The position numbers were made by a program, and so were the translations under genes. The notes beneath the pieces were generated by a model, which had not been told where the DNA came from, made no database searches, and saw nothing but the letters and a program-made list of their open reading frames with translations. Shown piece by piece: positions 18,252 through 61,947 of a stretch of DNA of 64,000 nt (position 1 is its first letter; every line of letters starts with the position of its first letter). The DNA comes from Pyrinomonadaceae bacterium (lineage in GTDB: Bacteria; Acidobacteriota; Blastocatellia; Pyrinomonadales; Pyrinomonadaceae): NCBI GenBank assembly GCA_044230475.1, contig JBGARA010000002.1, positions 25,975-89,974 of the forward strand, written 5' to 3'.

Positions 18252-18270
18252 TACCTCACTCCTTAACGTG

Positions 18271-20385: not shown

Positions 20386-20536
20386 AGCGCAAATTATTCC
20401 AACAACGTGCAGGAGACAATAAATTAAAATATCTTCTAGGGTAAGTTACTGATAGTGTTTGTAACACAGTTTACGCCAAAAACCAAACACTAAATAACTT
20501 GACTATCGCGGACGTTTGTATAATAGTCAGAAAATC

Positions 20537-22198
20537 ATGAAGAGTAGACAACTGGTGAAGAAGTTTAAGTTTTTTGCCGGATTGGCGATCTTGGCCGTCT
20601 CGGCTCTCAACATTCAGGCTCAAAACAGTTTAACGGCAGCAGACGTGCAGAGGATAATCGCTCAGGCGGTTTCCGAGGCGGTCGTATTGAACAAAAAGGT
20701 TACGGTTTCCGTGCTCGATAAGGAAGGACATGTGCTGGGAACTTTTGCTATGACCGGAGCGGCAGCGACAACCACGATCCGCGGCACGGGTCGATTAGGG
20801 CAAGGATTTGAAGGCGTCACTGTCCCATCGCGTTTTGCCTCTCTGTCTAAGGCCGGTACGGGCGCTTTGCTTTCGTCGGGCGGGAATGCATTTTCAACAC
20901 GGACCGCTTCGTTCATTATTCAGGAACATTTCCCTGCAGGTATCGACAATACGCCGGGCGGGCCGCTTTTCGGTGTACAGTTTTCGTCGCTGAAGTGTTC
21001 TGATGTTGCGATCTCAGGACTTCCCCTTGGCTTGTCCGGCGATGCGGGAGGAATACCACTTTACAAAGACGGTGTGGAAGTTGGGGGTGTAGGTGTCGAG
21101 GGCGATGGCCTTTATACAGTCGATACTAATCCGCGTGACAACGACCAGTCTTATGAAGAAAGAATAGCCGTTGCGGCGTCGCGAGGATTTGACACGCCAG
21201 CCTTAATTCGTGCCGATAATATACTTGTTGCAGGCATTCGTTTTCCATTTGCGAACATAAATGCCGCAGATTTTCCGGTTGCGACAGCTATCCCATTCGG
21301 AAGTTTACCCGGCGTGATAGATACCGATCCGGTTATGGCTGCGCCGGCGAGCGATTTTGTACCACGCATTTTGAATGGGGTAAGCGGGCAAGCCAGTATT
21401 CGCTATCCGACTATTGCGGGTTCTGCGCTGACCGCAACGGAGGTCGATCAGATACTAGGCGCGGCCGCCGCTACAGCTAATATTACGCGAGCCGCGATTC
21501 GTCAACCACTAGGTAGTAATGCAAGGGTTAATATTACCGTGGTTGATACTGACGGTAAGATTCTAGGGTTTTTCAGATTGCTCGATGCGCCGGTCTTTGG
21601 CTTTGATGTTTCGGCTCAAAAGGCTCGAACAGTCAATTTTGTCTCCAGTTCGATGGCTGGTACTAAATTAACTGTAGCGGGTTTCGGATCATACGTTACA
21701 CGAGCAAACGCGGACAATATCGGGCTAAACGGTTCGATTGCTTTCAGTGACAGAGGTTTTGGTTTTCTGAACCGCCCGATGTTTCCAGATGGAATAAATG
21801 GAACAGATGCCGGGCCGTTTAGTCGTCCTCTGGCCGATTTTAGTCCTTTTAATAATGGGCTGCAGGTCGATCTTATAAGAGATGCGGTTCTTACCATGCC
21901 CATATGTCGTGGGTCGGGAAGGGAGAAGAGGACTATGCTTCCTCCGTGTCCTTGCACAGTACTTCCTGAACTGAAGAATGGCACTCAGTTGTTTGCCGGT
22001 GGAGTTCCGCTCTACAGAGGAAATACACTTATCGGCGGCATCGGCACAAGCGGCGACGGCATTGAACAAGATGATCTGATTTCGGCCGCGGGAGCAAACC
22101 TGTTTCCGCCGCCGCAGGCAATGCGATCAGACAATTTCTTTGTTCGCAATGTTCGGCTTCCATTTGTAAAGTTTCCACCAAGACCGTTTTTGCCTTAA
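20537..22198 (+). CDS. secreted protein with two GlcG/HbpS-like (DUF336, haem-binding/degrading family) domains
   Basis: ATG 20537 gives MKSRQLVKKFKFFAGLAILAVSALNIQAQ, a signal peptide (the track starts at TTG 20516). There are two copies of the pattern LT..(D/E)V..I......A.....V...V(L/V)D..G..LG plus AGG(I/V)PLY..G..(V/I)GG(V/I)G(V/T)(E/S)GDG, characteristic of GlcG/HbpS-like proteins. Confidence 0.75.
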   Translation: MKSRQLVKKFKFFAGLAILAVSALNIQAQNSLTAADVQRIIAQAVSEAVVLNKKVTVSVLDKEGHVLGTFAMTGAAATTTIRGTGRLGQGFEGVTVPSRFASLSKAGTGALLSSGGNAFSTRTASFIIQEHFPAGIDNTPGGPLFGVQFSSLKCSDVAISGLPLGLSGDAGGIPLYKDGVEVGGVGVEGDGLYTVDTNPRDNDQSYEERIAVAASRGFDTPALIRADNILVAGIRFPFANINAADFPVATAIPFGSLPGVIDTDPVMAAPASDFVPRILNGVSGQASIRYPTIAGSALTATEVDQILGAAAATANITRAAIRQPLGSNARVNITVVDTDGKILGFFRLLDAPVFGFDVSAQKARTVNFVSSSMAGTKLTVAGFGSYVTRANADNIGLNGSIAFSDRGFGFLNRPMFPDGINGTDAGPFSRPLADFSPFNNGLQVDLIRDAVLTMPICRGSGREKRTMLPPCPCTVLPELKNGTQLFAGGVPLYRGNTLIGGIGTSGDGIEQDDLISAAGANLFPPPQAMRSDNFFVRNVRLPFVKFPPRPFLP

Positions 22199-22202
22199 AC
22201 CG

Positions 22203-22991
22203 ATGCAACGTCTTTGTTGGCATTTACTTTTCGTTCTGATCCTCTTGTTCGGTTGCGAAGAAATCTTTGCACAGGCAAGTGGCTCATTGATCGTGAATGG
22301 CCGCGCAAAAGTCGGAACAAAAACCGTGGTTCTTAAGAAAAAAAGATTCTATCTTTTTCGGGGTGACCGCGAAGCAAACAAAACATTGGTAGAACGGCTC
22401 AGAAGCGCGAAAGTGACGTCGCGCGACTGTTTTTATTGCCAGCAAAAGGTAAGCCCGGAATTTATGGCTTGGCTGAAGGCAAGTGACGGCGGCTGTGAGT
22501 CAGTTTATTGCCGCGAGATCACGCAGGAAGATATTGAACGCGTACCGGAATTTAAGACGGGTTTTGAAAAGGGAGTAAAACCCTTTGCAAAGAAGCCAGA
22601 GCTTGCGCGCAAATGGCTCGTAACAAATCTCGAGCCCGGACTTCGCACAGGATTCTACGATGCCCGAAAGGCAATGATCGACGATCTGCTGAAAGATTTA
22701 CCCGCGGAGCGGCTGCCGGTCCAATCCTCGATGACCGACAACAGCGCGGCATCATTAGCTAACTTTTCGAGTATACCTTTGACCCCTGAAGTCGAGAAAT
22801 TTATCTTTGCCAATCTGGTACCGATCGAGATCGGAGAAAGAAGCTATGTTTGGGTATGCGAAGTCGATGTCGGAAAGGATAAAAAAACGCCTATCCTGGA
22901 TGCACCGGAAACCAGCAAGGTAATCAAGAAATGTGAGGTGATAGTGCGAGACCTGCCCGTTTGTAATGCGGGAATGTGTGAACAGAAATGA
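22203..22991 (+). CDS. hypothetical secreted or lipoprotein, Cys-rich
   Basis: 262 aa. N-terminus LLFVLILLFGCEEIFAQA (possible lipobox LFGC or SPI site AQA). 10 Cys. 4 nt from the upstream stop, and its stop overlaps the next start (ATGA). Confidence 0.6.
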   Translation: MQRLCWHLLFVLILLFGCEEIFAQASGSLIVNGRAKVGTKTVVLKKKRFYLFRGDREANKTLVERLRSAKVTSRDCFYCQQKVSPEFMAWLKASDGGCESVYCREITQEDIERVPEFKTGFEKGVKPFAKKPELARKWLVTNLEPGLRTGFYDARKAMIDDLLKDLPAERLPVQSSMTDNSAASLANFSSIPLTPEVEKFIFANLVPIEIGERSYVWVCEVDVGKDKKTPILDAPETSKVIKKCEVIVRDLPVCNAGMCEQK

Positions 22992-24085
22992 AACTTTTTC
23001 TCAGACTCATTTTTGTCGGACTGGCTGTCGTGATATTTGCGGGCAGCTTAATAACACATTCCCTTGCGCAAAAAGCTACGGGTCAGAATGCCGGAAAAAC
23101 GTTTTCCCATTTCACAAAATCTCACCAATTCGCTGACTGCAAGATTTGTCACACTCTGCCGACGCGAAATTGGACATCGCCGAGAGCTGACAAAGCCGAC
23201 TCTTTTCCAGATGTGACGGATTATCCTTTCAATCTTCCCGATACAAAAGGTGCGGCAAAACATACAGCCTGTTTCGGATGTCATACAAACGATATATACA
23301 GCAAGGGTGGTGCTTTTTGTGCAGGCTGTCATTTGGCCGCCGGACCGCGTGCGAGGCCCGGAAGCGGGCTTCGACCATTTCCAAATCCTGCTCATCCCAC
23401 GCAGTTCACGACTATCTTTCCGCACGACGCCCACCAGGACATCGTGGCCTTGAACGATCGAAGAAATGATACTGCTCCGGGACATTTTGTTTTGGCAAGT
23501 TTTACCGAACCGCCCGACAACAAAAATACCGAATTCTATAATTGCTCTACGTGTCATCAGACTTCAAAAATCTTGCCAAAATATGGAACACGTAAACCGA
23601 ATACCGATCAAAAACCATTGGCGGCCGCCCCGGACCCGTTCAAACCGACCGCTGACTACTTTAAGGATGTTCCGATGAATCATGCGACGTGTTTTGCATG
23701 TCACTATCAGCGTACACAACCGATCTCAACAAATTGTTCAGGCTGCCATAAACTTGCTGACAAGCCTTATTTTGAATCCAGTGTCGTAGAAAGATATTCA
23801 TTGAAATTCAGCCACGAACAATTGGGTAAGAAATCGCAGGTTGGCGAGCGTGTTCACGCAAAAGACTGCATGACCTGTCACCTCCGTACGGCGGGCAGCT
23901 CCGATCTGCAGGCATACAAGAAAAAAAGTGAACCTGAAGTGCCGTTCTCAACATGCGTTTCGTGTCACAGCGACGATATAAAAGACCAACTGGAAAAGCG
24001 GGAAAAGGACAAGAAGTTTCAGTGCAATTATTGTCATGTATCGACTATCGGAAGATATGAGAAACCCGAAAGTCATCACGAATGA
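22988..24085 (+). CDS. nonahaem c-type cytochrome (cytochrome c3/c7-like family)
   Basis: 365 aa. Signal peptide. Nine CxxCH motifs: CKICH, CFGCH, CAGCH, CSTCH, CFACH, CSGCH, CMTCH, CVSCH, CNYCH. Confidence 0.9.
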   Translation: MKLFLRLIFVGLAVVIFAGSLITHSLAQKATGQNAGKTFSHFTKSHQFADCKICHTLPTRNWTSPRADKADSFPDVTDYPFNLPDTKGAAKHTACFGCHTNDIYSKGGAFCAGCHLAAGPRARPGSGLRPFPNPAHPTQFTTIFPHDAHQDIVALNDRRNDTAPGHFVLASFTEPPDNKNTEFYNCSTCHQTSKILPKYGTRKPNTDQKPLAAAPDPFKPTADYFKDVPMNHATCFACHYQRTQPISTNCSGCHKLADKPYFESSVVERYSLKFSHEQLGKKSQVGERVHAKDCMTCHLRTAGSSDLQAYKKKSEPEVPFSTCVSCHSDDIKDQLEKREKDKKFQCNYCHVSTIGRYEKPESHHE

Positions 24086-24990
24086 TAATGAACGCGAGTT
24101 CAAGACAAATGTTGAAGGCTGTGCTCGTCGTCGTCTGTGCTGCGCTTTTTGCGGCGTCTTGCATTCAGCAAGCGGCAAAGACGCCCGTGACACTGACCTC
24201 GGCGGAAACGCCTGATCCTATACCGCAGCGTGTTTCTGACAAGACATTCAAATCTTTTTCTCACAGCATTCCTGAGCACATACAATTTGCCTGCAATACT
24301 TGCCATCAACGCGAGACACGTGGCGTCAAAAGTGAATTTGGCGGGCACGAATCCTGCATCGGCTGTCACCTGAATCAGTTCATCGATGAGGAGCAGATGA
24401 TGTGCGCTATCTGCCACACCGATACAAAAGGGCAAGATCCGCCGGTCAAGGCTTTCCCCGCGAAATTTATCGAAGGGTTCAACATGAAATTTGATCATGC
24501 GGCTCACATTTCTATTTCCAATTGTGACGATTGCCATAAATCTTCTGGAAGAGGAAAATCGATACCCGTCGGATTTGAGGCGCATGCGAATTGTTACGGA
24601 TGCCACACCGTAGAGAACAAACCGGCAAGCGGCCAGTGCAATGTTTGCCATCAGTTGGCACCATATAATAGAACGACGCAGTCAGAATATAATTTCAAAG
24701 CAATTTTTAGCCACGCCGATCACACAGGTAAAGGAATTACCTGCAATGATTGTCACAACGTGGTTGCCGGGGTGCCGAATTCACGACAAGTAACAAACAT
24801 TCAGATCCTGGAACACCGCACCAGTCCTGGCAACAATTGCCTGCAGTGTCATAACGGCAGACGCGCTTTTACGGGCAATAATCCACTCGACGCACGCAGC
24901 TGCGCGCGTTGCCACGGCGGCTCGGTATCGCCCGTTCTGCCGCCAGGCACTTATGCCGATACCGCTGAAGAGGCTCCGGCAGAGAATTAG
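24082..24990 (+). CDS. nonahaem c-type cytochrome, probable lipoprotein
   Basis: 302 aa. N-terminus VVVCAALFAASCIQQ (lipobox-like AASC). Nine CxxCH motifs: CNTCH, CIGCH, CAICH, CDDCH, CYGCH, CNVCH, CNDCH, CLQCH, CARCH. ATGA overlap with the upstream gene. Confidence 0.9.
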   Translation: MIMNASSRQMLKAVLVVVCAALFAASCIQQAAKTPVTLTSAETPDPIPQRVSDKTFKSFSHSIPEHIQFACNTCHQRETRGVKSEFGGHESCIGCHLNQFIDEEQMMCAICHTDTKGQDPPVKAFPAKFIEGFNMKFDHAAHISISNCDDCHKSSGRGKSIPVGFEAHANCYGCHTVENKPASGQCNVCHQLAPYNRTTQSEYNFKAIFSHADHTGKGITCNDCHNVVAGVPNSRQVTNIQILEHRTSPGNNCLQCHNGRRAFTGNNPLDARSCARCHGGSVSPVLPPGTYADTAEEAPAEN

Positions 24991-25001
24991 AACAATCCAA
25001 T

Positions 25002-25568
25002 ATGATTCGATTGAACAAACTTACGGGATTCGTGTTTTGTCTTACCGTCTGTATCGTTTTTTCTTATGATATTTCCAGATTTGGCTGGACGGGCTATTCG
25101 CACGCGTCTGTTAGACAAGGATCACCTCCAACTGCAACCCCAACAGCAACTGTGACAGCGACTGAACAATCGACCGTAAAGCCGACGCCATTCAATACTC
25201 CTGTAACTGCTAATATAAAGCAGGGTCTTGACCAGCCGATGCAATCAATCAATAAGGAACTACGTGCACTCGATGAAGATGGAGAAAAGGGACCCGTCCC
25301 TTTCGATCATGACTCGCATGCCTTTAAGGCAAGTTATAGCATCGATGGGAACTCAATCGTGGCCTGTGTGGCATGTCATCATACGGACCAACCACGAACG
25401 CCCGGGCGATTATCCGAACGCCTTGTGACCCTCACATATACAGTCTGGAAAGGCTTGGAGAACTGCACTTTATGCCATGCTAGTGCAGCGGAAAGAAGAA
25501 CAGAACTAAGGAAAAAAGCGAAATTTGCCACTAGAATCAACCAACAATGCAGTGTTTGTCATGGGTAG
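25002..25568 (+). CDS. trihaem c-type cytochrome with Thr/Pro linker
   Basis: 188 aa. Signal anchor, linker PPTATPTATVTATEQSTVKPTP, then PFDHDSHAF...CVACHHTDQP, CTLCH, CSVCH. Confidence 0.85.
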   Translation: MIRLNKLTGFVFCLTVCIVFSYDISRFGWTGYSHASVRQGSPPTATPTATVTATEQSTVKPTPFNTPVTANIKQGLDQPMQSINKELRALDEDGEKGPVPFDHDSHAFKASYSIDGNSIVACVACHHTDQPRTPGRLSERLVTLTYTVWKGLENCTLCHASAAERRTELRKKAKFATRINQQCSVCHG

Positions 25569-25588
25569 AGCTATGAGTTTTTCCAAAA

Positions 25589-26407
25589 ATGTTGACTTCA
25601 GATTCAAAAGGGTTTTTAATAAGTCGTATTATGAAAAACACAGCTAAATTGATAGTGATCTCTACTTTTGCGCTCGGGGCGCTATTTGCTTTTTTGAGCA
25701 TCAATGGTCAGGTTACGATAGGCGCGGCTGGTTTTTCCGGAGTAGCAGCACAGCCGACTCCGCCAAAAAAGACAAACTCAAATTCGGTATCGGCCAACGC
25801 CAAACCGGCGGCAAATGTAAGCACGTCCGCAAACACAATGCCGGCTAATGCTTCACCAGTAAGCACAGTATCGCCCGCGGCGACATCCGCTGCGACGCCT
25901 CTAACTTCGGCGGCAAATACAGGTACCGCAACCGGTCCGACCGGCAGCGGCAAAAAGATAACTAAATCATTCACCTTGGGTGCAGACAGCCAGTCTGAAT
26001 ACGGCGAGGCTCCGTTCGATCATGATTCACATGCCTTTATGAAATACAGCCCCGATGGCAAATCAGTTATGGGCTGTGTCGAGTGCCATCATACCGATCA
26101 ACCAAAATCGGCGATGCAGCCACCATATGTGACTTCAGAACGGGATGAGGTTCTGACTTTTGAACTATGGCAAAAATCGAATCAAAAGGTTAGTAGCTGT
26201 CGCGATTGCCATTTTCAGGATGGAAATGTTCCCGACGGAAAAACTATGCCGAAATCAGGCACTAAAGATCTGAATAATCAACTTGCGTATCACATCAACT
26301 GTAACTCGTGCCATGACGCAGCCTTTAGGGCCCGGCCAGAGCTAAAATCTCACAAAGGATTTGCAACGTCGAAGGACTGCGCCGTTTGTCACAAAGTGAA
26401 TCAATAA
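25589..26407 (+). CDS. tetrahaem c-type cytochrome (c3-like) with long Ala/Ser/Thr/Pro linker
   Basis: 272 aa (the alternative ATG 25631, MKNTAKLIV..., gives a cleaner signal peptide). PFDHDSHAF...CVECHHTDQP, CRDCH, CNSCH, CAVCH. Paralogous to the preceding gene. Confidence 0.85.
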   Translation: MLTSDSKGFLISRIMKNTAKLIVISTFALGALFAFLSINGQVTIGAAGFSGVAAQPTPPKKTNSNSVSANAKPAANVSTSANTMPANASPVSTVSPAATSAATPLTSAANTGTATGPTGSGKKITKSFTLGADSQSEYGEAPFDHDSHAFMKYSPDGKSVMGCVECHHTDQPKSAMQPPYVTSERDEVLTFELWQKSNQKVSSCRDCHFQDGNVPDGKTMPKSGTKDLNNQLAYHINCNSCHDAAFRARPELKSHKGFATSKDCAVCHKVNQ

Positions 26408-26857
26408 ATGGCCTCAAGGCAATGCGAGAAATGCGGTGAAACTGTTGACGAGGCCAAGGCATTTTGCCCAGGTTGCGGCAACGCTTTTGTTCAGGAAGAG
26501 AGACGACAGGAAGCCTCGAAGTTTGAGAAATTGGATTCCACTGTCCAGTTTGGACAGACGATGTATAATCAATTGCTCGAGGATATGGGGCTGAATATTT
26601 CAGCCGCACCAAACGCGGGCGAAAAGCGCGTCGAAGTTATAGCTCCGGTCAAGACAGAAGCAGTACCACCGAAAGCTACTCCAAGTATTCTTGTGCAGCC
26701 CGCGGTAGTACCGCCGGAAAAGAAACCTGATAAAACGGCGGCTGCGAGCAATTTGAGATTGTATATCCTGATCGGCGTGGCAGTGATCTTACTTTTGCCG
26801 ATCGCCATTGCGTCCGCGATCTTGTTTGTACTTGATATCATGTCACGTCTTAAGTAA
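26408..26857 (+). CDS. zinc-ribbon protein with C-terminal transmembrane anchor
   Basis: 149 aa. CEKCGETVDEAKAFCPGCG (CxxC-x10-CxxC), a Pro/Val-rich middle and terminal helix LYILIGVAVILLLPIAIASAILFVL. ATG immediately follows the upstream TAA. Confidence 0.65.
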   Translation: MASRQCEKCGETVDEAKAFCPGCGNAFVQEERRQEASKFEKLDSTVQFGQTMYNQLLEDMGLNISAAPNAGEKRVEVIAPVKTEAVPPKATPSILVQPAVVPPEKKPDKTAAASNLRLYILIGVAVILLLPIAIASAILFVLDIMSRLK

Positions 26858-26893
26858 GCGCATCGCAACTTTTTTCGGTAACACATACTCACA

Positions 26894-29368
26894 ATGCCAC
26901 GTGTAATAGAAAATCACGAGCAGGTAATAGAGGCATTTAGACAAGTTGACATCGTATCGGAACTTGTCGAAAAGCTGCCAAACGGCGAGTTTCGTAACGA
27001 GCTCGACATGGATATCATTCTGTTTGGCCGCAGCTATCGCGGCAAACAGGTCGGCCCATATACACGTCTGCTCGAATACACTCCCGGCGAAACCATCGTT
27101 CAGGAAAAGACATGGGAAAGCAGCATCTTTTACATCCTCGTAAAAGGCAAACTCGACGCTTCTATCACAGAACAAAGCGGGAACAGAAAAATTGTTGGCT
27201 CGATCTCTGCCGGAAGCTCTTTTGGCGAAATGGCGATGCTTTCAGGAACCCCTAGAACTGCAACGGTTTCCGTGGCAGATGAGCCTGCACTCGTTTTGGA
27301 ATTTACGCGACCCGCGATTCGGTTGCTGCGCAAGCTGCCGAAATTTGGCAAGGCTCTTGACCGCAATTACCGCAGCTATGGGCAGACGCTCACGTTGAAT
27401 GAACTAAAAGATCTCGCAAACCTGGATTTTGGAAATCCTGTTATTCAGCGATTGAACGATGCCGCGCGTTTCGCTGTCTATGAAAAAGATCATGTGTTGT
27501 TTCGCGAGGGTGACCCGATCAATCGAGTGGTGTTTGTCAAAAACGGCTGGATACAGCGCGTAAGCGGCATCGAATTTAACACAAAGGCTGCTGATCTGCT
27601 GCTCGAATCGGATGAATCGGTGGGTCTCGATTTCCTTGGAGCGGGAACTTGTCTTGGGCTAGAGGCGGTTGATGGTCCGACAAATTGGAGATATACCGCA
27701 ACTGTCGCTGGACGAACGGAGGTGCTTGAAATTGCTGTCTCACGACTGCGTGAGGACAAGGAAATGGGCTCGGTGGTCGTTCCGTTTTTGAAAGGCGCGG
27801 CTGAAAACGACGACCAGATGCCGCTGCATCCGAGCGACCCTCGTGTATTGACTGCCGCAAGCCGCGAGATCGAAACCGGTGTTGTCGATGGCGTAAATCT
27901 GCTGGTGATGGACATGGCCAAATGCATACGCTGCGGCAATTGTTCGCTTGCGTGTCATCAGGTTCATGGTCACTCGCGCCTCACGCGACGCGGCATTCAC
28001 ATCGAGCGGCCATTTAAGGCAAATAAGCCGGCAACACAAAGTGTCCTTGTGCCTACCGTTTGCATGCATTGCCAGGACCCGGAATGTTTGACCGGGTGTC
28101 CGACAGGCGCGATAGCTCGATTCCCCAATGGTGAGATCGACATCAATCCAGCAACATGCATTGGTTGCGGCGATTGCGCTACGCAGTGTCCATACAACGC
28201 GATCTCGATGATCGCCCGTCCTGACCCCAAAAACAAAAACGGCAAGGGGGCGGTGTCAAATATTTTATCCGTCTTCTCGCTCGGCAAAGCAAAATTACCA
28301 AAGCGAGTGGAGCAAACCGAAAACCTACTTGCCGTAAAATGCAATCTTTGTCACGACACGGGAATGAATCCGAAGGGAGCAAAAACCGAGACATATTCGT
28401 GTCAGGAAAATTGTCCGACCGGAGCACTTGTCCGAGTAAATCCGCGAGAATATTTCGATGAGGTCAATCAGACGATCGGCCCAATGCGTCGGAGCAAAAC
28501 ACACGCGATCGGAGTCAATATTCACAAGTTCGATCTGTGGGCGACAATCTGGCACATCTTTGGAGTCGTTTTAATTTTGGCATTTGGCGGTGCGGCTGTG
28601 TGGGCAACACGGACCTTTGCTCAGGATATTCCGCTGAGCGGCGGCGGTTGGGTGACAATGCGATGGCTGACCGGATTGACCGGACTCGCGAGTATCGTAT
28701 GGGTGATGGCCTACCCGATGAGAAAGCAAGTCTATCGTCGGCGCGCCGGAGCCTTGCGATATTGGATGCTGTCGCATATCTATCTTGGCGTTCTGGCAGG
28801 AGTTTTACTGTTGGTTCATGGAGGTACAAATTCCGGCGGGTTGCTGACGACAGCTCTTATGATCTCGTTCGATCTTGTGATCGCTAGCGGTCTTTTTGGC
28901 GCAGCTTGTTACATTATCGTGCCGCGTTTTATGACGCGGATCGAACGCGAACCTCTGTTGTTGGAAGATCTCGAAGCTCGCCGCGAAGAACTTCGTGCCG
29001 AGCTAGTTCGTGCCGCCGATCAAACGGCAAATGCGGAACTGAACCAGCTTATTCAAAAGAAAGTACGCCGCCGTTTTTTGGGGCTTGGATATCTTATCCG
29101 ACAATATCTGAAGCAAGAAGATCTGCAAACCTTACTCGCTGATGCACGAGCAGAATTTCGTTCGGCGGCTGAAGGAATGAGCCGCTCTGACGATGCACGA
29201 TTAATGGAGGCGGTGGAAAATGCTGCTACCTTGCGGCGGGTCGATGCATTGTGTTACTTGCATAAATCATTAAAGCTATGGGTTCCGCCACATGTTTTGT
29301 TTACGGCGCTTATGTTGGTGCTTATGGCGATACATATAGTTCAGGTTGTCTATTTTAACGTCAGATGA
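26894..29368 (+). CDS. cyclic-nucleotide-binding (x2) / 4x[4Fe-4S] ferredoxin (NrfC/DmsB-like) / polytopic membrane domain protein
   Basis: 824 aa. cNMP signature FGEMAMLSGTPRTATVSV plus a second, degenerate CAP-like domain. Cluster motifs CIRCGNCSLAC, CMHCQDPECLTGCP, CIGCGDCATQCP and CNLC...CQENCP. About five hydrophobic helices in the last 280 aa, several carrying His. Confidence 0.85.
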   Translation: MPRVIENHEQVIEAFRQVDIVSELVEKLPNGEFRNELDMDIILFGRSYRGKQVGPYTRLLEYTPGETIVQEKTWESSIFYILVKGKLDASITEQSGNRKIVGSISAGSSFGEMAMLSGTPRTATVSVADEPALVLEFTRPAIRLLRKLPKFGKALDRNYRSYGQTLTLNELKDLANLDFGNPVIQRLNDAARFAVYEKDHVLFREGDPINRVVFVKNGWIQRVSGIEFNTKAADLLLESDESVGLDFLGAGTCLGLEAVDGPTNWRYTATVAGRTEVLEIAVSRLREDKEMGSVVVPFLKGAAENDDQMPLHPSDPRVLTAASREIETGVVDGVNLLVMDMAKCIRCGNCSLACHQVHGHSRLTRRGIHIERPFKANKPATQSVLVPTVCMHCQDPECLTGCPTGAIARFPNGEIDINPATCIGCGDCATQCPYNAISMIARPDPKNKNGKGAVSNILSVFSLGKAKLPKRVEQTENLLAVKCNLCHDTGMNPKGAKTETYSCQENCPTGALVRVNPREYFDEVNQTIGPMRRSKTHAIGVNIHKFDLWATIWHIFGVVLILAFGGAAVWATRTFAQDIPLSGGGWVTMRWLTGLTGLASIVWVMAYPMRKQVYRRRAGALRYWMLSHIYLGVLAGVLLLVHGGTNSGGLLTTALMISFDLVIASGLFGAACYIIVPRFMTRIEREPLLLEDLEARREELRAELVRAADQTANAELNQLIQKKVRRRFLGLGYLIRQYLKQEDLQTLLADARAEFRSAAEGMSRSDDARLMEAVENAATLRRVDALCYLHKSLKLWVPPHVLFTALMLVLMAIHIVQVVYFNVR

Positions 29369-30789
29369 GCGAGCTAGAAGGAAAATTCACGATCTCATAC
29401 GCCGACCTTCTTATCAATTCCAAGTCGGTTACGAAGGATAGCATCTATATCGGACGATTGGAGACGTGCGAAATTTTTCTGAATCATAAAAGTGTCTCAA
29501 GGATCCATGCCGGGATCAGTTTTCAGGAGAATAATTACAATCTTGTAAATTTATCGACGTCGAATGTTCTTTCGCTGAATGGTCGCCGACTAAAGCCTAA
29601 ACAGTCCGATGTGCTGGCGGATGGCGATACGATCCAGATCGGTCCGTATACTATAGGCGTAGGCCGTCTTGACGATGAATTATTGCTTGTCGTCGAACAG
29701 CAGGTCAAGGACTTGGCGGAGCAAGATACATCAAAAGTTGCAAAAACTCCGACTAATGTTCATGAAGAAGCCGGCGGCGTCCTTGATGTATTTTGGGAAA
29801 AACGTTCACGTGACAAGGATGATTGGGGAACGCGGCTTCGCCCGACGGAAAAACCACAACCGGGCAAGGCTATGTTCAACTGGAAGCCGACGCATGATCT
29901 GCGTCCAACGTGGCGAGCCGGGCTGTTTATCTGGGCATTTCTTGTAGTCGGAGCGCTCGGTGTTTACGCATTTTTCCGTCACCCAGATGTTTATACATCG
30001 CGGCCGCTTTCAAATCCGCACGCATCGCAGATCGAAAACAGCACAATAGCAGTGGCAGCGAACGGAAATTCGTGTACGACTTGTCATACTCCTAACGAAC
30101 CGGTCGAAAATTCATGTATCAAATGTCATTCTGCATCGGAATTTCATTCGTCTAATACAAAGGCACACGAGACGGCCGGAATAACCTGTACGATGTGCCA
30201 TCGCGAGCATCAGGGATCTGAGTTTGATATGAAGGCCACGGCAATAAGAATGTGCGCCGAATGTCATAACGATCAAAATACAAAAACATACGACGGCAAG
30301 AAGGTGAATACGCCACATGGCGGTTCATACGGTTATCCGGTGGTTGATGGCAAGTGGCAATGGAAAGGTGTCTATCGCGAAGTTGCCGATGCGATACCTG
30401 AGATCGATCGCAGCGCTACAGGCGACAAAGATGAGCAGGCAAAACTCAGCCGACAGTTTCACACGATCCATCTTTATCGCTTGACGGCAGGTGCTCCGTT
30501 GAAAGGTGATAAACGAGGTCTCGTAACTTGTTCAACATGTCACGAAAGTTTTGGCACAAATAATGTAGACAGGGTTAAGCCGCGCCAGACGTGCGCGGTT
30601 TGCCATACTACACCTGAAAATTTGGCGGGTCGTGACAAGCGTTTCAGTTCCGGCGGAGTGAATTGCATTTCGTGTCACGTTCAGCATCCTCACAGTACCG
30701 GACGTTGGAGCGAATTTCTGACCAGTGATGCGCTTGAAAGAAGAAAGGAAGCTGTGACTAACAAGATCAAACAACTTAGCAGCCAATGA
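29365..30789 (+). CDS. FHA domain / single TM / heptahaem c-type cytochrome fusion protein
   Basis: 474 aa. FHA hallmarks IYIGR...SVSRIHA...LSLNGR...GDTIQIGPY at residues ~25-100. TM helix AGLFIWAFLVVGALGVYAFF. Seven CxxCH motifs: CTTCH, CIKCH, CTMCH, CAECH, CSTCH, CAVCH, CISCH. ATGA overlap upstream. Confidence 0.85.
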   Translation: MSELEGKFTISYADLLINSKSVTKDSIYIGRLETCEIFLNHKSVSRIHAGISFQENNYNLVNLSTSNVLSLNGRRLKPKQSDVLADGDTIQIGPYTIGVGRLDDELLLVVEQQVKDLAEQDTSKVAKTPTNVHEEAGGVLDVFWEKRSRDKDDWGTRLRPTEKPQPGKAMFNWKPTHDLRPTWRAGLFIWAFLVVGALGVYAFFRHPDVYTSRPLSNPHASQIENSTIAVAANGNSCTTCHTPNEPVENSCIKCHSASEFHSSNTKAHETAGITCTMCHREHQGSEFDMKATAIRMCAECHNDQNTKTYDGKKVNTPHGGSYGYPVVDGKWQWKGVYREVADAIPEIDRSATGDKDEQAKLSRQFHTIHLYRLTAGAPLKGDKRGLVTCSTCHESFGTNNVDRVKPRQTCAVCHTTPENLAGRDKRFSSGGVNCISCHVQHPHSTGRWSEFLTSDALERRKEAVTNKIKQLSSQ

Positions 30790-32681
30790 AGTTTTTCCAT
30801 CTATTTATTTGTATTGTGCTTATCGGCTTTCTCATTTGGCTGAACCAGGCCATTGTACCCGCCGATGCGATTCGATACGGAGGCCTTTCTTGGATCGGTT
30901 GGGCGAGCATTGGCTTGGTCGGTGTCGGATTTGGCCTGCTCCTTATTTTTAATGACACGTCGCGGGCATTTGGATTCTTTAAAGATCGTGACAAAAAAGC
31001 GGCACCTGAAACAAACATCCGAACCCTCTCAAAAGCGGAGCTTACCGAACTGGGCATCGATAAATATCGCGGCCCGTCGTACCCGCATCCGGTAATTTTT
31101 TCCGAAAGATGCATCGGCTGTCAGGCGTGTGTCGATGCATGTCCTCATGACGTGCTTGCGATAGTCGATGGGACTGCGGCGGCGGTTGCTCCCGACCTCT
31201 GCATGGAAGATACCGCCTGCCAGGCGGAGTGTCCTGTGAATCCAAAGGCGTGCATCATTATCAATACTGCCAAAGAAGTGCGCTCGATGCCGACACCAAC
31301 GCGTGACGGCACAACTTTTGAAACGAACGTTCCGGGGTGTTTTATTATCGGCGACGTCTCGGGCGTTCCCTTAATAAAAAATGCCGTTAAAGAAGGTGCC
31401 GACGTTATCGCGCACATTGTTGGCGAACTGAAGGGCGCCCCACCTGAGCCTAAGGCAGATTACGATGTTGCGATCATCGGTATTGGGCCTGGCGGGGCAT
31501 CAGCAGCGGCAGCCGCGCAGGAAGCAAATATTCGCTACATTGGTATCGAACAGACGCAAATACTGTCGACAATAGACCTGTATCCCAAGGGGAAGTACAT
31601 CTTCTTTAAGCCGGATACAAAGGACTGGTCAGGTGGAATTCCGGTTGCAGGCCTCGGCCTGTCAAAACCAAAATACGCGGCTGCGGAAGATGACGGCGAC
31701 CAACCGATCTTTGACGCGCTGGGACAGGACCTGCAAACTATCGTGCACGAACAGGCGGCTGTGCTTCACGCCGAAATGCTCGCAAAGATACCAACCTCGC
31801 TTCATGAAAAACTCGCGCCCAAACTCTCTGAAAAGGTTGAGAAGGAGCTGAAAAAAAGGATCGCCGGATTTCTACGTTCAAAGGGTTCAGTTGATTGGAC
31901 AAAAGTGTTTCAGACTCAGTTTCTTAAAGAACGTGACACTCTGCTGCCGCTTTTCCGATCGGACATCACCGATCAGCTTCAGACAAAAATTCCAGGCGAC
32001 CAGCGTGAGAACATTCTCGACATATGGCTCGGCAGCCTTGCCCAAAAAGGCGTTCGGATAAATGAAAATGAAAGCTGCAAGACGGTAAACCGGGCCGAGG
32101 ACGGCGATTATTTTGTTATCAATACCGAGCGCGGTGCTGAGAAATCACCGCAAACGTACAAAGCAAGACGAGTAATAATTGCCATCGGTCTTCGAGGTGC
32201 TCCGAATAAACTTCGGCTGCCGAATGAAGATCTGAAATTCAGGATCGAAGGCCGTGATGAGCAAAAAGTCATTTATGGTCTCTCCAATCCGGCTGATTTC
32301 TGGGGTTGTCGTATTGTTGTCGTAGGAGGCGGCAATGTCGCTGTGGAAGCTGCCGTCGATCTAGTAGCTACGCGTGACGGAGCGGCCATTGCGCCACGAA
32401 CACCCGAAATGATGAATCAGGTCACGTTGCTAGTGCGCGACTATCTGGCGCCTACTGTGAAATTTGGAAATAAATTTCAGCTGTACCAATGCGCGGACAA
32501 CGGCATCATCGATCTGCGATTTGGTGTCGGTATCAAGGAACTGCGCGAAAATGAGGTCGTTCTCGAAGACGTAAAAACGAAGAAGGAGATCGAAACAATT
32601 CCAAACGACTACGTTTTTGCTCTCATCGGTGGCGAGAGGCCGAATCGATTTTTGGAGTCGATAGGTATTACAATCAAATAA
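30786..32681 (+). CDS. membrane-anchored 4Fe-4S ferredoxin / FAD- and NAD(P)-binding oxidoreductase fusion
   Basis: 631 aa. Two N-terminal TM helices. CIGCQACVDACP and C..TACQAECP cluster motifs. Dinucleotide folds DVAIIGIGPGGASAA and RIVVVGGGNVAVEAA. TrxR-like GD motif NVPGCFIIGDVSG. Confidence 0.8.
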   Translation: MKFFHLFICIVLIGFLIWLNQAIVPADAIRYGGLSWIGWASIGLVGVGFGLLLIFNDTSRAFGFFKDRDKKAAPETNIRTLSKAELTELGIDKYRGPSYPHPVIFSERCIGCQACVDACPHDVLAIVDGTAAAVAPDLCMEDTACQAECPVNPKACIIINTAKEVRSMPTPTRDGTTFETNVPGCFIIGDVSGVPLIKNAVKEGADVIAHIVGELKGAPPEPKADYDVAIIGIGPGGASAAAAAQEANIRYIGIEQTQILSTIDLYPKGKYIFFKPDTKDWSGGIPVAGLGLSKPKYAAAEDDGDQPIFDALGQDLQTIVHEQAAVLHAEMLAKIPTSLHEKLAPKLSEKVEKELKKRIAGFLRSKGSVDWTKVFQTQFLKERDTLLPLFRSDITDQLQTKIPGDQRENILDIWLGSLAQKGVRINENESCKTVNRAEDGDYFVINTERGAEKSPQTYKARRVIIAIGLRGAPNKLRLPNEDLKFRIEGRDEQKVIYGLSNPADFWGCRIVVVGGGNVAVEAAVDLVATRDGAAIAPRTPEMMNQVTLLVRDYLAPTVKFGNKFQLYQCADNGIIDLRFGVGIKELRENEVVLEDVKTKKEIETIPNDYVFALIGGERPNRFLESIGITIK

Positions 32682-32682
32682 G

Positions 32683-33387
32683 ATGAGAAAAGACAATATC
32701 ATGTTTGTGGTGCTCGGCCTCCTTGTGGGTCTGGTGATCGGCTTTGCGGGCGCTAACAGTATCAATCGATCGGCATACGAGAAACAACCCGCTTCCACTG
32801 CGGGCAGCGATCCCAACAAAAATCCGGCACTGCCTCCCAATCATCCACCGCTTGGAGATTCCGGAGAAGAACGACCTAAAGGGGGTTCTCCCGGGCCTGA
32901 GGTTATGGCAGCCATCGAAAAGGCAAAGGCTCAACCGCAAAATTATGAGGCCCAAATGACCGCTGCTGATCTCTATTACCAGATAGAGCAGTTTGATGAT
33001 GCGGCCAAGTTCTACGAAGCGGCCTCGAAAATCAAACCTACTGAGACAGAACCTCAGATCAAAGCCGGCAATGCCTATCATGACGGCAAGAAATACGAAG
33101 AGGCAGCAAAATGGTATCTGAAGGCATTAGAAAAAGATCCTAAAAATATAGATGTCAGAACCGACCTCGGGCTCACATTCTTTCTTCGCGAACCGCCCGA
33201 TATCGAACGAGCAATAAAAGAATACAAGGCTTCTTTGGCTATCGAACCGAATCACGAAATAACTTTGCAAAATCTTGCGGTGGCCTATAGCGAGAAGAAT
33301 GACAGGGAAAATTTTCTCTCGACGTTGGAAAAGCTAAAAAAGGTCAATCCTAATAACCCCGTTGTAACAAAAAGTGACAATAAATGA
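32683..33387 (+). CDS. membrane-anchored TPR repeat protein
   Basis: 234 aa. TM helix IMFVVLGLLVGLVIGFAGA, then at least 3 TPR-like units (AADLYYQIEQFDDAAKFYEAA, AGNAYHDGKKYEEAAKWYLKALEKDP, LAVAYSEKNDRENFLSTLEKLKKVNP). Starts 1 nt after the upstream stop. Confidence 0.75.
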   Translation: MRKDNIMFVVLGLLVGLVIGFAGANSINRSAYEKQPASTAGSDPNKNPALPPNHPPLGDSGEERPKGGSPGPEVMAAIEKAKAQPQNYEAQMTAADLYYQIEQFDDAAKFYEAASKIKPTETEPQIKAGNAYHDGKKYEEAAKWYLKALEKDPKNIDVRTDLGLTFFLREPPDIERAIKEYKASLAIEPNHEITLQNLAVAYSEKNDRENFLSTLEKLKKVNPNNPVVTKSDNK

Positions 33388-35221: not shown

Positions 35222-35974
35222 TTACTCGTCGTCCTGATCATCGCCGGGCTGGATCAGGCCTTTCTCAAAGGCATAAATGACCAGATTAAGGCGATCATCA
35301 ACGCCCAGCTTACCGTAGATAGAGCTGAGATGGTGTCGAACCGTTGCTTCGCTGATGCTGAGGCGTTCGGCGATGACCTTGCTCTTTAATCCCTTTCCGA
35401 TCATTGATATCACTTCGACTTCCCGCCGGGTTATGGTCTCGGGTGCAGGCCCATGTTTGCCGTTGGTGGCTTTTGGAGCAGTTGAGTCGCCGTTTTTGAT
35501 CAGGTTGTTGAGAAGCGCCTGATTTAGCCACGTCTCACCCTTAAATGCCCTGCGTATCGCTTCGATCAGCAACTTAGACCCTTGATCGGAACGAACTATG
35601 CCCATAGCCCCGAACTTAAGTGCCTGGGTTGAGCAGTCAAGGTCGTCAGTATCTGTGATCATCACCACTTTTAGGTCCGGGTTGTTCTGCAAGATATCCC
35701 TGATGATCTCTACGGAGTCGCTGGCATCGAGATAGATGACCGCAATATCCGAGCCCTCGGTCGCGAAAGGCTCACTATCCGAACCAAGGCCAAACTTGGA
35801 TAAGATCCGCAGGTCGCTGTTACTTTCTATCAAAGAAGCCAAACATTCGCGGTCAAGCCGATGGCGGGCAATCACCGAAATTCGTATGCATTGCTTCTGG
35901 ATCTTTGTGTCAGGCATGGTCATACAAAATGCTGAATCGGTCGTATTAAACGTCCAAGCAGCATGATCTTCCAA
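35222..35974 (-). CDS. LuxR/NarL-family regulator with atypical receiver domain
   Basis: 250 aa (the start may be MTMPDTK at 35923). C-terminal HTH ITRREVEVISMIGKGLKSKVIAERLSISEATVRHHLSSIYGKLGV. The receiver-like N-terminus has IRISVIARHRL where canonical receivers have DD, and IVRSD where the conserved Lys is expected. Confidence 0.8.
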   Translation of the reverse strand: MEDHAAWTFNTTDSAFCMTMPDTKIQKQCIRISVIARHRLDRECLASLIESNSDLRILSKFGLGSDSEPFATEGSDIAVIYLDASDSVEIIRDILQNNPDLKVVMITDTDDLDCSTQALKFGAMGIVRSDQGSKLLIEAIRRAFKGETWLNQALLNNLIKNGDSTAPKATNGKHGPAPETITRREVEVISMIGKGLKSKVIAERLSISEATVRHHLSSIYGKLGVDDRLNLVIYAFEKGLIQPGDDQDDE

Positions 35975-37259: not shown

Positions 37260-37982
37260 ATGGCAAAGACATCAATCAATATTTTTCTTATCTGCGACCT
37301 ATCGATATTCAGGACCGCTCTGCGAATGCTGATCGAAGCTGAAAGCCGGTTTCAGGTGGTAGGTGAGGCTACGGATGCAAATACCGCGGTCGAACGGATA
37401 GCTAGCCTCCGCCCCGATATTATTCTTGTCGATATTTCGGATGTTGACGACAAGTCGTTGCTGCCATTGACGACACCTGAGATCGCAAAGATACCGGTTC
37501 TTGTGCTTACCAGAAAAGACCAAGTCGAGTTTTATCAACAGTGTTTGAAATTGGGCATCAAGGGATTGGTAGCCAAGCAAAACGGGGCAGATGTCCTGTA
37601 CAAGGCTATCGAGAAAGTTTGCGAGGGCGAATTCTGGTTTGACAGGTCAGTGATGGGCGCGACCATCCGACATATGTTGAACGAGAAGCAGTCCTTTATC
37701 GACAATCCGGCGGCACAAAAAGCGAACGGTATGACCGAACGCGAAAGAGAAGTTGTCGAGCTTATTTGTCGCGGCATGAAGAATAAGAACATCGCCGAAA
37801 AGCTCTTTATTGCAGAAACAACGGTCAGGCATCATCTGACTTCGGTATTTAACAAGCTTGAGGTTGCCAGCCGGCTGGAGCTTGTTATTTATGCCTTCAA
37901 AAATCAGCTGGTTAAGATCCCAAATCAGCAGAAAGCCTATGAGGAAAACGGCGACGATGGAAAGGAGCTAAATTACGTCTAA
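37260..37982 (+). CDS. LuxR/NarL-family response regulator
   Basis: 240 aa. Receiver IFLICDLSIF...PDIILVDISD...VLVLTRKD...GLVAKQ (acceptor Asp, Thr and Lys present, first acidic pair is CD). HTH MTEREREVVELICRGMKNKNIAEKLFIAETTVRHHLTSVFNKLEV. Its C-terminus is paralogous to the 35222..35974 protein (RLELVIYAFKNQL vs RLNLVIYAFEKGL). Confidence 0.85.
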   Translation: MAKTSINIFLICDLSIFRTALRMLIEAESRFQVVGEATDANTAVERIASLRPDIILVDISDVDDKSLLPLTTPEIAKIPVLVLTRKDQVEFYQQCLKLGIKGLVAKQNGADVLYKAIEKVCEGEFWFDRSVMGATIRHMLNEKQSFIDNPAAQKANGMTEREREVVELICRGMKNKNIAEKLFIAETTVRHHLTSVFNKLEVASRLELVIYAFKNQLVKIPNQQKAYEENGDDGKELNYV

Positions 37983-38150: not shown

Positions 38151-38444
38151 ATGAACAAAGAAGAAAAAATAGAAAAGAAACGCCAGGAAAAAGAAAGGCG
38201 AAAAAAGAAAAAGAACGCTCTGGTTATTTGCCGGGATGGCAAAAACTACTGGACGACCCAGGCTCAGTTTTGGCAATGGGTTCGTGAAAATGTCGTCGTA
38301 AAGCTCGGCGACGGGCCGCTGCACGGAAAATTTGTGCAGGAAAACGAAGAATACAACGTTGTAATAAGTAATACAGTCTTAAACTTACGATGCCCAAATC
38401 ATCTAAGTGAGGCACTCGCGTCCAGACGGCGCGCTTTAATGTAA
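38151..38444 (+). CDS. small Lys/Glu-rich hypothetical protein, first gene of the polysaccharide operon
   Basis: ATG 38151 gives MNKEEKIEKKRQEKERRKKKKN followed by a Trp-rich globular part (YWTTQAQFWQWVRENV). The stop overlaps the next start as TAATG (38442-38446), suggesting translational coupling. Confidence 0.5.
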   Translation: MNKEEKIEKKRQEKERRKKKKNALVICRDGKNYWTTQAQFWQWVRENVVVKLGDGPLHGKFVQENEEYNVVISNTVLNLRCPNHLSEALASRRRALM

Positions 38445-39397: not shown

Positions 39398-39425
39398 CAC
39401 GAGGCACGACCCTCGCGTTTTTTAT

Positions 39426-41867: not shown

Positions 41868-41905
41868 TCCTGATCAAGAACGGGAATTGTACGGTCCTCC
41901 ACAAA

Positions 41906-42991: not shown

Positions 42992-42996
42992 TATTG

Positions 42997-44873: not shown

Positions 44874-44876
44874 TAT

Positions 44877-46637: not shown

Positions 46638-46641
46638 ACAT

Positions 46642-47574: not shown

Positions 47575-47608
47575 GTTCTCAGGAACCGGCTGCTAAAAGC
47601 TACTATTT

Positions 47609-48886: not shown

Positions 48887-48903
48887 TAAGAGGCTATCGA
48901 ACT

Positions 48904-49815: not shown

Positions 49816-49850
49816 CAATTAGTCATTTATTATTGGATCATTGACCGCCA

Positions 49851-51311: not shown

Positions 51312-51315
51312 TAGT

Positions 51316-53271: not shown

Positions 53272-53274
53272 TGT

Positions 53275-55711: not shown

Positions 55712-55741
55712 CCCGAGATAATTATCCGACAATTATCTACG

Positions 55742-56911: not shown

Positions 56912-56930
56912 ACGCTGAAGGCATCGTAAT

Positions 56931-61936: not shown

Positions 61937-61947
61937 TTTACCGAAAA

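Follow-up and report, generated by a model that had tools for sequence, protein, structure and literature searches.

A forkhead-associated heptahaem cytochrome as a candidate subunit of a signal-gated electron-transfer complex in Pyrinomonadaceae

What is a protein for that carries a forkhead-associated (FHA) domain, one transmembrane (TM) helix and seven c-type haem motifs on a single chain? Such a protein is encoded in a 64,000-nucleotide stretch of a Pyrinomonadaceae genome (assembly GCA_044230475.1, contig JBGARA010000002.1, positions 25,975 to 89,974 of the forward strand), referred to below as the window. Its gene (29365..30789, + strand) is a single open frame of 474 amino acids. An earlier reading made from the letters of the window (the sequence-only reading) proposed that the protein couples Ser/Thr-kinase signalling to a periplasmic haem chain, either regulating electron flow or reporting periplasmic redox state inward. 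We propose, at a probability of roughly 0.5, that it faces the periplasm as the cytochrome c subunit of a conserved inner-membrane complex, encoded by three genes and gated by cyclic nucleotides (cNMP) and by the FHA domain. Comparison with relatives suggests that this complex could be a signal-controlled wire linking NAD(P)H in the cytoplasm to cytochromes of the periplasm or the cell exterior. The sequence-only reading is partly supported: it was right on architecture and topology and plausible on phospho-signalling, and it was too narrow in that the protein appears to be one subunit of a larger complex.

Domains were assigned using Pfam, AlphaFold2 (AF2; run on a 39-sequence alignment), Foldseek and motif counts, which together confirmed the FHA, TM and heptahaem parts of the chain. 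The FHA domain occupies residues ~10-110 (29392..29694, + strand). The match to Pfam FHA (PF00498) covers residues 28-93 (E=9.8e-15) and scores 55.2 bits where the cut-off is 20.7 bits, or 57 bits on the N-terminal fragment alone. The region was modelled as a beta sandwich with strands over residues 6-112 and a predicted local distance difference test (pLDDT) of 93-96 for residues ~10-110. The top Foldseek matches in the PDB were all FHA domains (OdhI, GarA, Rad53 FHA1, DgcB and EmbR; E ~1e-7, probability 1.00), and these nearest structures are bona fide phosphothreonine (pThr) binders. The pocket is formed by R31, S45, R46, H48 and N67, with N72-G73. After a variable, unconserved linker (residues 113-138, about 16% Ser+Thr) comes a cytoplasmic juxtamembrane motif, VL.VFWEKR...R..L.P....GK..FNW.PT.DL..PW (residues 139-183; 29779..29913, + strand), and then the single TM helix (residues 184-206; 29914..29982, + strand), which hydropathy, AF2 and charges describe as an N-in/C-out signal anchor (AF2 helix 183-205, pLDDT ~93; flank charges +2 / 0).

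Beyond the helix lies a heptahaem domain predicted to be periplasmic (residues 212-445; 29998..30699, + strand). Its seven CxxCH motifs, at residues 237, 251, 275, 297, 389, 410 and 434, use 14 of the 15 cysteines of the protein. In 20,000 composition-preserving shuffles of the protein the mean number of such motifs was 0.018 and the maximum was 2. Seven further His (H219, H268, H282, H318, H366, H369, H441) were invariant in the alignment and are candidate distal ligands. Because the 14 invariant His would supply seven proximal and seven distal ligands, all seven haems look bis-His ligated, a pattern that fits a wire rather than a catalytic site. Cytochrom_c3_2, Paired_CXXCH_1 and Cytochrome_C7 (Pfam) matched the domain above their cut-offs. 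In local profile-to-PDB comparisons, the TM helix and first haems matched 8k9e_A (E=7e-6), which we take to be the TM-anchored ActA-like cytochrome subunit of an alternative complex III (companion FeS chain 8k9e_B), and the C-terminal haems matched the 333-residue chain 6r2q_A (E=3.9e-9), presumably of the Shewanella Mtr complex. Fold comparison of the cytochrome domain was abandoned at an AF2 pLDDT of <55, and sequence-profile hints alone were obtained.

So unusual a frame could be suspected of being an artefact, either because an error in sequencing or assembly had merged two genes or because the FHA-like segment had arisen by chance. A search of 5.8 billion proteins returned 953 homologues at E<=1e-3. 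The best 120 of them were full length, with 61-99% identity and with FHA and cytochrome Pfam domains, and where a source gives them a name it is 'FHA domain-containing protein [Pyrinomonadaceae bacterium]'. When GTDB was scanned with one genome for each species, 131 relatives were found, from which 79 loci were kept; all are metagenome-assembled genomes (Pyrinomonadaceae, Blastocatellia or Acidobacteriota), several of them labelled 'Chloracidobacterium sp.' at NCBI. FHA domain, TM helix and exactly seven CxxCH were found in 73/73 full-length orthologues, which come from independent assemblies. This architecture rules out a frameshift or chimera, the FHA hidden Markov model (HMM), fold model and fold search were all strong, and nothing was found in favour of an artefact, the probability of which we regard as negligible.

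The gene does not stand alone. Its ATGA overlaps with both neighbours (29365-29368 and 30786-30789), described in the sequence-only reading, are both present. The order cNMP-FeS-TM gene, FHA-cytochrome gene, flavoprotein gene is kept in nearly all 79 loci, down to 37-40% cytochrome identity. The upstream partner gene (26894..29368, + strand; 824 amino acids) was found in synteny in 66 loci and also adjoins the fused forms described below. Pfam cNMP_binding matched two stretches of its product (90.8 bits for the whole protein), and in the first of these domains (residues 61-143; 27074..27322, + strand) the phosphate-binding cassette, FGEMA...PRTAT, is intact and recurs in relatives. An NrfC/PsrB-type ferredoxin domain follows (residues 337-527; 27902..28474, + strand), in which 16 invariant Cys in four groups make up four predicted [4Fe-4S] clusters. 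It matched PDB 6cz7_B at 1.1e-16 as well as HycB4 and NrfC, and is most similar to the four-cluster subunits ArrB, PsrB, NrfC, HycB and DsrO; the NCBIfam models for ArrB, DsrO and NrfC matched below their equivalog cut-offs, and those for HmcB and QrcC below threshold. Because the protein showed no Tat signal or signal peptide, and because the cNMP domains precede the ferredoxin domain, the latter is predicted to be cytoplasmic, which is atypical for its type.

The upstream partner ends in a domain of five TM helices (28526..29365, + strand). It has seven conserved His, among them two H-x13-H pairs, H628/H642 in TM3 and H800/H814 in TM5. The two His of each pair are 14 positions apart. These four His and the 16 Cys were 99-100% conserved, and where the FHA-cytochrome is fused, the partner protein, at 45-51% identity, keeps the same 20 positions. 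The charges of the loops, +4 and +6 on the inner side against -1 and 0 on the outer, agree with an FeS domain in the cytoplasm and a C terminus in the periplasm. The two helices with His pairs share one direction, inside to outside, and the pairs lie at matching depth. From two invariant H-x13-H pairs at matching membrane depth we infer that the domain holds two b haems and is a candidate transmembrane wire; it may be an undescribed, widespread haem-binding membrane fold.

The downstream partner gene (30786..32681, + strand) encodes 631 amino acids, with two N-terminal hydrophobic helices followed by ferredoxin and FAD/NAD(P) parts. The ferredoxin domain has eight invariant Cys of the 2x[4Fe-4S] type. 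Pyr_redox_2 and Pyr_redox_3 (Pfam) scored above their cut-offs, and the two-Rossmann flavoprotein is closest to YpdA/Bdr and TrxR-like enzymes (7a76_A at 1.1e-15), with a YpdA NCBIfam score of 116.8 bits against an equivalog cut-off of 339.9 bits. A true TrxR was ruled out: the redox-active CxxC is missing, no conserved CxxC being present outside the FeS motifs in the alignment. We read this partner as a ferredoxin fused to a probable FNR-like NAD(P)H oxidoreductase.

Natural fusions connect these proteins further. An exhaustive HMMER search of 1.84 billion representatives gave 44 matches below 1e-30. Single chains of 929-1174 amino acids with the order FHA, TM, seven haems, TM, Fer4, flavoprotein were found (P0136, P0143, P0148, P0151, P0157, P0166), and P0136 as query retrieved about 70 such fused clusters from Blastocatellia and Bryobacteraceae. 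Their automatic annotation is 'NAD(P)-binding domain-containing protein' or 'thioredoxin reductase', and their genes adjoin a cNMP-Fer4-5TM gene, c7/c3-type cytochromes and LVIVD cytochromes. The proposed complex is encoded by two genes in some lineages and by three in the window. Since the FHA-cytochrome and the flavoprotein are one polypeptide in other Acidobacteriota, the fusions argue that the two proteins of the window physically associate. High-GC relatives place two to six tandem FHA domains before the TM-heptahaem-TM-Fer4-flavoprotein body (P0196, P0212, P0229, P0262, P0344). In other relatives the cytochrome is absent and the order is FHA, juxtamembrane motif, TM, TM, Fer4, flavoprotein (P0172, P0178, P0221, P0342); P0342 has neither a cytochrome gene nor a cNMP gene nearby. 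The heptahaem module also occurs behind unrelated N-terminal domains (P0142, P0185, P0230), and P0345 from Sorangium consists of the flavoprotein part without FHA. In two distant lineages a large WD40 protein is encoded beside the FHA-flavoprotein gene: one has 1570 amino acids and is of the AAA_16/STAND type (locus L084, 5205..9917), the other has 1199 amino acids (locus L080, 14084..17683); they are possible signalling partners.

The fusions also bear on topology. A chain that runs from FHA through TM, haems and a second TM to the flavoprotein requires an inside-outside-inside path, which puts FHA domain and flavoprotein in the cytoplasm and the haems in the periplasm. Together with the positive-inside charge bias, this supports the predicted topology of the FHA-cytochrome, with FHA inside and haems outside the membrane, as the sequence-only reading had placed them.

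The TM helix and haems of the FHA-cytochrome could in principle work without the neighbouring gene products, as a stand-alone quinol dehydrogenase of the CymA/NrfH/ImcH kind that passes electrons from the quinone pool to periplasmic cytochromes, the FeS and flavoprotein genes being functionally separate. One N-terminal TM helix followed by a periplasmic multihaem domain does resemble NapC/NirT, the weak match to the ActA-like chain covers the TM helix and first haems, and the authors of a preprint on Ferrigenium favour such a role for the similar protein NHC (bioRxiv 10.64898/2026.01.22.701106). However, no NapC/NirT (Cytochrom_NNT) Pfam match was obtained, even at E<=10 on the cytochrome fragment. 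There are seven haems, the first CxxCH lies about 30 residues past the helix, whereas the tetrahaem domain of NapC/NirT follows the TM directly, and all seven haems appear to be bis-His ligated. The flavoprotein fusion, the strict synteny with the FeS/5-TM gene and the overlapping codons argue for one physical complex. A quinol dehydrogenase is accordingly judged improbable.

If the three proteins form one complex, electrons may take the following path. The TM-anchored flavoprotein would oxidise NAD(P)H and pass electrons from FAD to its two [4Fe-4S] clusters, from which they would reach the four [4Fe-4S] clusters of the cNMP-binding subunit. The membrane would be crossed via the two putative b haems of the 5-TM domain, and the seven c haems of the FHA-cytochrome would receive the electrons on the other side. 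Onward transfer would lead to the 25 haems of four soluble or lipoprotein cytochromes in the periplasm and then to an outer-membrane barrel and a decahaem LVIVD protein, that is, towards an extracellular acceptor. Two cytoplasmic gates would sit on the complex, the cNMP-binding domains and the FHA domain. Two such gates would make bioenergetic sense because outward flow from NAD(P)H would drain reducing power and membrane potential. The FHA domain would most likely dock on a partner subunit or a regulator, at a site that is phosphorylated or mimics phosphorylation, and so control electron flow or assembly much as GarA/OdhI or DgcB control their targets.

How far the FHA domain reads pThr was assessed from the conservation of its pocket. 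In the window's clade G30, R31, S45, R46, N72, G73, G87, D88 and G93 are invariant (74/74 sequences for G30, R31, S45, R46, N72 and G73). H48 is kept in 72/74, and N67 is found in 53/74 with Ser in its place in 20. Mean column conservation among clade orthologues was 0.69 for the FHA domain and 0.70 for the haem domain. Of the doubts that the sequence-only reading had attached to itself, those of an FHA-like segment below HMM thresholds and of a sequencing error hidden in the frame have been settled in its favour, and the Arg/Ser/His pocket is kept in homologues of the clade. Among about 90 fused representatives, the canonical pocket 'RSRHN' was present in 58 and the pocket Ser was replaced by Asp/Glu in about 20. 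FHA function is probably phospho-dependent in the window's clade.

The juxtamembrane motif accompanies the FHA domain across fused, multi-FHA and cytochrome-less variants. L140, W144, R147, R149, L158, P160, G167, W173, P175, T176, D178 and L179 were invariant (alignment A1), and HMM matches in relatives, including fused and cytochrome-less forms, make the motif the most widely conserved cytoplasmic segment. Its core, FWEKR...GK..FNW.PT.DL..PW, is invariant more widely than the FHA pocket itself. T176 (W-x-P-T-x-D-L, with Leu in the pT+3 context) is the sole cytoplasmic Thr conserved at >=90%. It was considered as a phospho-site read in cis and set aside as probably structural, since it is invariant where the pocket is degenerate.

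Several results weigh against the doubly gated complex as proposed. On the electron path, the AF2 model of the haem domain, built without cofactors, was poor, and di-haem binding by the 5-TM domain is deduced from nothing beyond the His pattern. Pfam gave 0 matches to the 5-TM domain at E<=10, including NarI, FdnI/HydC, cytochrome b/b6, b561 and ferric-reductase families; the NCBIfam search was empty; and no relative was found by PDB profile search (best E=1.7) or by Foldseek (best E=0.73), the latter queried with an AF2 model of pLDDT 75 and predicted template modelling score 0.62. On the FHA gate, distant split forms often have no pocket Ser, Arg or His. With the pocket Ser replaced by Asp/Glu or the triad gone in a sizeable minority of distant relatives, phospho-reading cannot be the universal role of the module, and T176 stays invariant even next to a degenerate pocket. 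Hanks-type kinases and PP2C phosphatases, which the sequence-only reading had recommended seeking in the genome, were searched for by tblastn with PknB kinase-domain and PstP sequences (sanity-checked at E<=10); at E<=1e-3 none was found in the 64-kb window, in the 79 orthologous loci (+/-8 kb) or in four loci of fused relatives (L080-L083). The proposed coupling to Ser/Thr kinases therefore stands as far as the intact pocket of the clade carries it, and is weakened by the missing linked kinase or PP2C and by the degenerate pockets of many relatives.

The lost pockets and the missing linked kinase or PP2C also favour an alternative in which the complex is as proposed and the FHA domain is a phosphorylation-independent docking or assembly module with no Ser/Thr-kinase input. 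Its task would be to keep flavoprotein or FeS subunits attached to the single-pass cytochrome, much like the FHA-fold cytoplasmic domains of YscD/PrgH in type III secretion systems, or GarA/OdhI when they bind target enzymes without a phosphate. Yop-YscD_cpl (Pfam) also passed its cut-off on the FHA region (35.8 against 33.2 bits), and the FHA domain is covalently linked to the flavoprotein in the fused and cytochrome-less forms. A pure docking role is, however, hard to match with the near-complete retention of R31, S45, R46 and H48 in the clade, with the canonical pocket in most fused representatives, and with phosphopeptide-binding FHA domains as the best fold matches. We hold it to be possible, though less probable than a complex under phospho-control.

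The cytochrome-less relatives bear on a further alternative, in which the protein senses redox conditions across the membrane: a change in redox or ligand state at the periplasmic haems would act through the TM helix on the FHA domain, and a phosphoprotein of the cytoplasm would in turn be bound or let go. The layout of a cofactor domain outside, a single TM and an interaction domain inside does resemble one-component membrane sensors, and the cluster is enriched in cytoplasmic signalling domains. Against this, seven bis-His haems look like a wire, the FHA domain has no catalytic output, and no partner gene was evident. In the cytochrome-less relatives, moreover, the flavoprotein is still connected to the FHA domain, the juxtamembrane motif and the TM part. 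Their existence places the FHA domain on the cytoplasmic face of a multi-subunit redox complex and speaks against the general role of 'reporting periplasmic redox state inward' that the sequence-only reading had offered as one of two options. A sensor is very improbable. We conclude that the FHA domain serves the complex on its cytoplasmic side, for interaction or regulation, and that it does not relay periplasmic redox state.

The proposed complex was compared with known electron-transfer systems. The Geobacter inner-membrane cytochromes CbcBA, CbcL and ImcH join a b-type membrane module to a multihaem c module, which has seven haems in CbcA and in ImcH, and deliver electrons to periplasmic cytochromes and a porin-cytochrome conduit. 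They take these electrons from menaquinol and are not known to have cytoplasmic FeS, flavin, FHA or cNMP domains. The logic of a b module and a c module feeding periplasmic cytochromes is similar here, whereas the membrane domain is unrelated by HMM to HydC/FdnI-type cytochrome b. Scores for the NCBIfam models DmsE, GSU2203 and CctA were all far below cut-off (DmsE/MtrA type, TIGR03508, 36 bits against 192; Geobacter decahaem type, NF041028, 33.5 against 325). With Tmc, Hmc, DsrMKJOP and Qrc of sulfate reducers and with alternative complex III the trio shares the use of a periplasmic multihaem c subunit together with membrane and NrfC/PsrB/DsrO-type FeS subunits. In contrast to those systems, the four-cluster ferredoxin is here predicted to be cytoplasmic and shares a chain with the membrane domain. 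NrfD-like and NarI-like subunits and CCG-domain proteins are absent, whereas two signalling domains and an NAD(P)H flavoprotein of its own are present.

In the ferric-reductase-domain proteins NOX, STEAP and MsrQ and in the cytochrome b of bc1/b6f, two TM helices each carry a His pair 13 residues apart and hold two stacked b haems, and in NOX a cytoplasmic NAD(P)H-FAD module feeds an outward electron path. The 5-TM domain has a like His-pair spacing but no sequence or fold similarity to these proteins; five TM helices are present, and six predicted FeS clusters lie between flavin and haems, unlike in NOX. The closest FHA domains by fold and sequence, those of GarA/OdhI (acting on 2-oxoglutarate dehydrogenase, GDH and GOGAT) and of Bdellovibrio DgcB (FHA-GGDEF), show that an FHA domain can itself act as the switch of an enzyme. 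They are soluble and identified Hanks kinases act on them via an N-terminal pThr, whereas the FHA domain here is tethered to a membrane cytochrome or flavoprotein.

The trio is part of a run of 11 packed + strand genes (20516..33387) with gaps of <=37 nt or overlaps. The order is HbpS/GlcG-like, secreted unknown, four cytochromes, zinc-ribbon/TM, cNMP-FeS-TM, FHA-cytochrome, flavoprotein and TM-TPR. The first two genes (20516..22991, + strand) encode a secreted HbpS/GlcG-like protein of 560 amino acids, of a haem-binding/degrading family, and a secreted Cys-rich protein of 262 amino acids without a family match; both are kept in the closer loci. The four secreted multihaem cytochromes (22988..26407, + strand) have 9, 9, 3 and 4 CxxCH. 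In distant loci (37-40% identity) the soluble cytochromes are still near the trio, on the opposite strand. The zinc-ribbon protein (26408..26857, + strand; 149 amino acids) has the ribbon at its N terminus, then a Pro/Thr-rich linker and a C-terminal TM helix; its gene is kept in loci at >=53% identity and is absent from the 37-40% group. The last gene (32683..33387, + strand) encodes a TM-anchored TPR protein whose TPR part weakly resembles the CcmH/CycH type. Scanning both ends of the operon for promoters and terminators gave nothing informative.

A divergent pair of genes lies on the other side (14292..20385, - strand) and encodes a 704-residue CarboxypepD_reg protein with an outer-membrane-barrel-like C terminus (...KLIF) and a 1319-residue decahaem protein with LVIVD repeats. 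The pathway is likely to end, on its outer side, with these two proteins. Fused FHA-cytochrome-flavoprotein genes, too, have LVIVD cytochromes nearby (loci L080 and L082 and the contig of P0344). The CxxCH total of the cluster in the window is 42. Just downstream of the LVIVD decahaem gene a secreted protein of 954 amino acids is encoded (11151..14015, - strand), with Dockerin_1 and Cohesin Pfam matches (E ~2e-8 each), an unusual combination in one protein for an acidobacterium. Farther along the window, a long same-strand run of open reading frames (38444..62991, + strand) begins with Wza-like (Poly_export/SLBB) and Wzc-like (GNVR + AAA_31) genes, the two that were scanned, and may be an exopolysaccharide locus. 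Two LuxR-family regulator genes precede it (35222..35974 and 37260..37982).

The literature was searched for similar proteins. The closest published counterpart is the protein named NHC of Ferrigenium straubiae, which has an FHA domain, one TM helix and nine haems. Its gene lies beside those of a [4Fe-4S] protein and of a 5-TM protein that matches nothing in databases; according to the preprint, no combination of FHA with multihaem had been reported before, and the function is left open there (bioRxiv 10.64898/2026.01.22.701106). A 'forkhead-associated protein' with 10 CXXCH is listed for 27 genomes in Table 1 of an earlier Gallionellaceae pangenome study (2023; PMC9900912). By their described layout, these uncharacterised proteins share with the one in the window the FHA domain, the single TM, the multihaem part and the 5-TM and [4Fe-4S] neighbours, and they differ in having nine or ten haems rather than seven. 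In comparison with NHC, the 5-TM and FeS parts are here in one protein that also has two cNMP-binding domains, a ferredoxin-flavoprotein partner is present and is fused in relatives, and the host belongs to the Acidobacteriota rather than the Betaproteobacteria. No FHA protein with 9-10 CxxCH was among the representative sequences retrieved and scanned. No paper combining FHA, CXXCH and Acidobacteria was found, and a preprint on extracellular electron transfer (EET) in peat makes no mention of FHA, cNMP or flavoprotein. The remark of the sequence-only reading that no characterised example was known thus holds, since none was found, while the Gallionellaceae and Ferrigenium reports soften the claim to complete novelty. 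The idea of an FHA-multihaem protein as such has been noticed before, in another phylum; new with respect to the literature are the heptahaem acidobacterial family, the ferredoxin-flavoprotein fusion, the cNMP-FeS partner and the candidate di-haem 5-TM fold.

A bolder proposal, which we offer as tentative and consider unlikely to hold in full, is that the trio represents an unrecognised class of quinone-independent NAD(P)H:multihaem-cytochrome oxidoreductase. It would be doubly gated, by cyclic nucleotide and phosphothreonine, would cross the membrane through a new 5-TM di-haem b fold, and would be the missing inner-membrane entry point for EET in Acidobacteriota, occurring in split form in Gallionellaceae. 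The FHA domain would then make electron export a direct target of Ser/Thr kinases.

Acidobacteriota are among the most abundant bacteria of soil and peat and encode many multihaem cytochromes. We know of no obvious equivalents of CymA, ImcH or CbcL in them, and the locus described here is a concrete candidate for how electrons leave the acidobacterial cytoplasmic membrane. If the proposal is true, post-translational control would here be an integral part of a respiratory wire, which is rarely the case. It also suggests what the FHA-multihaem 'NHC' cluster of iron-oxidising Gallionellaceae might do, and flags a 5-TM domain without a family as a probable new haem-binding membrane fold.

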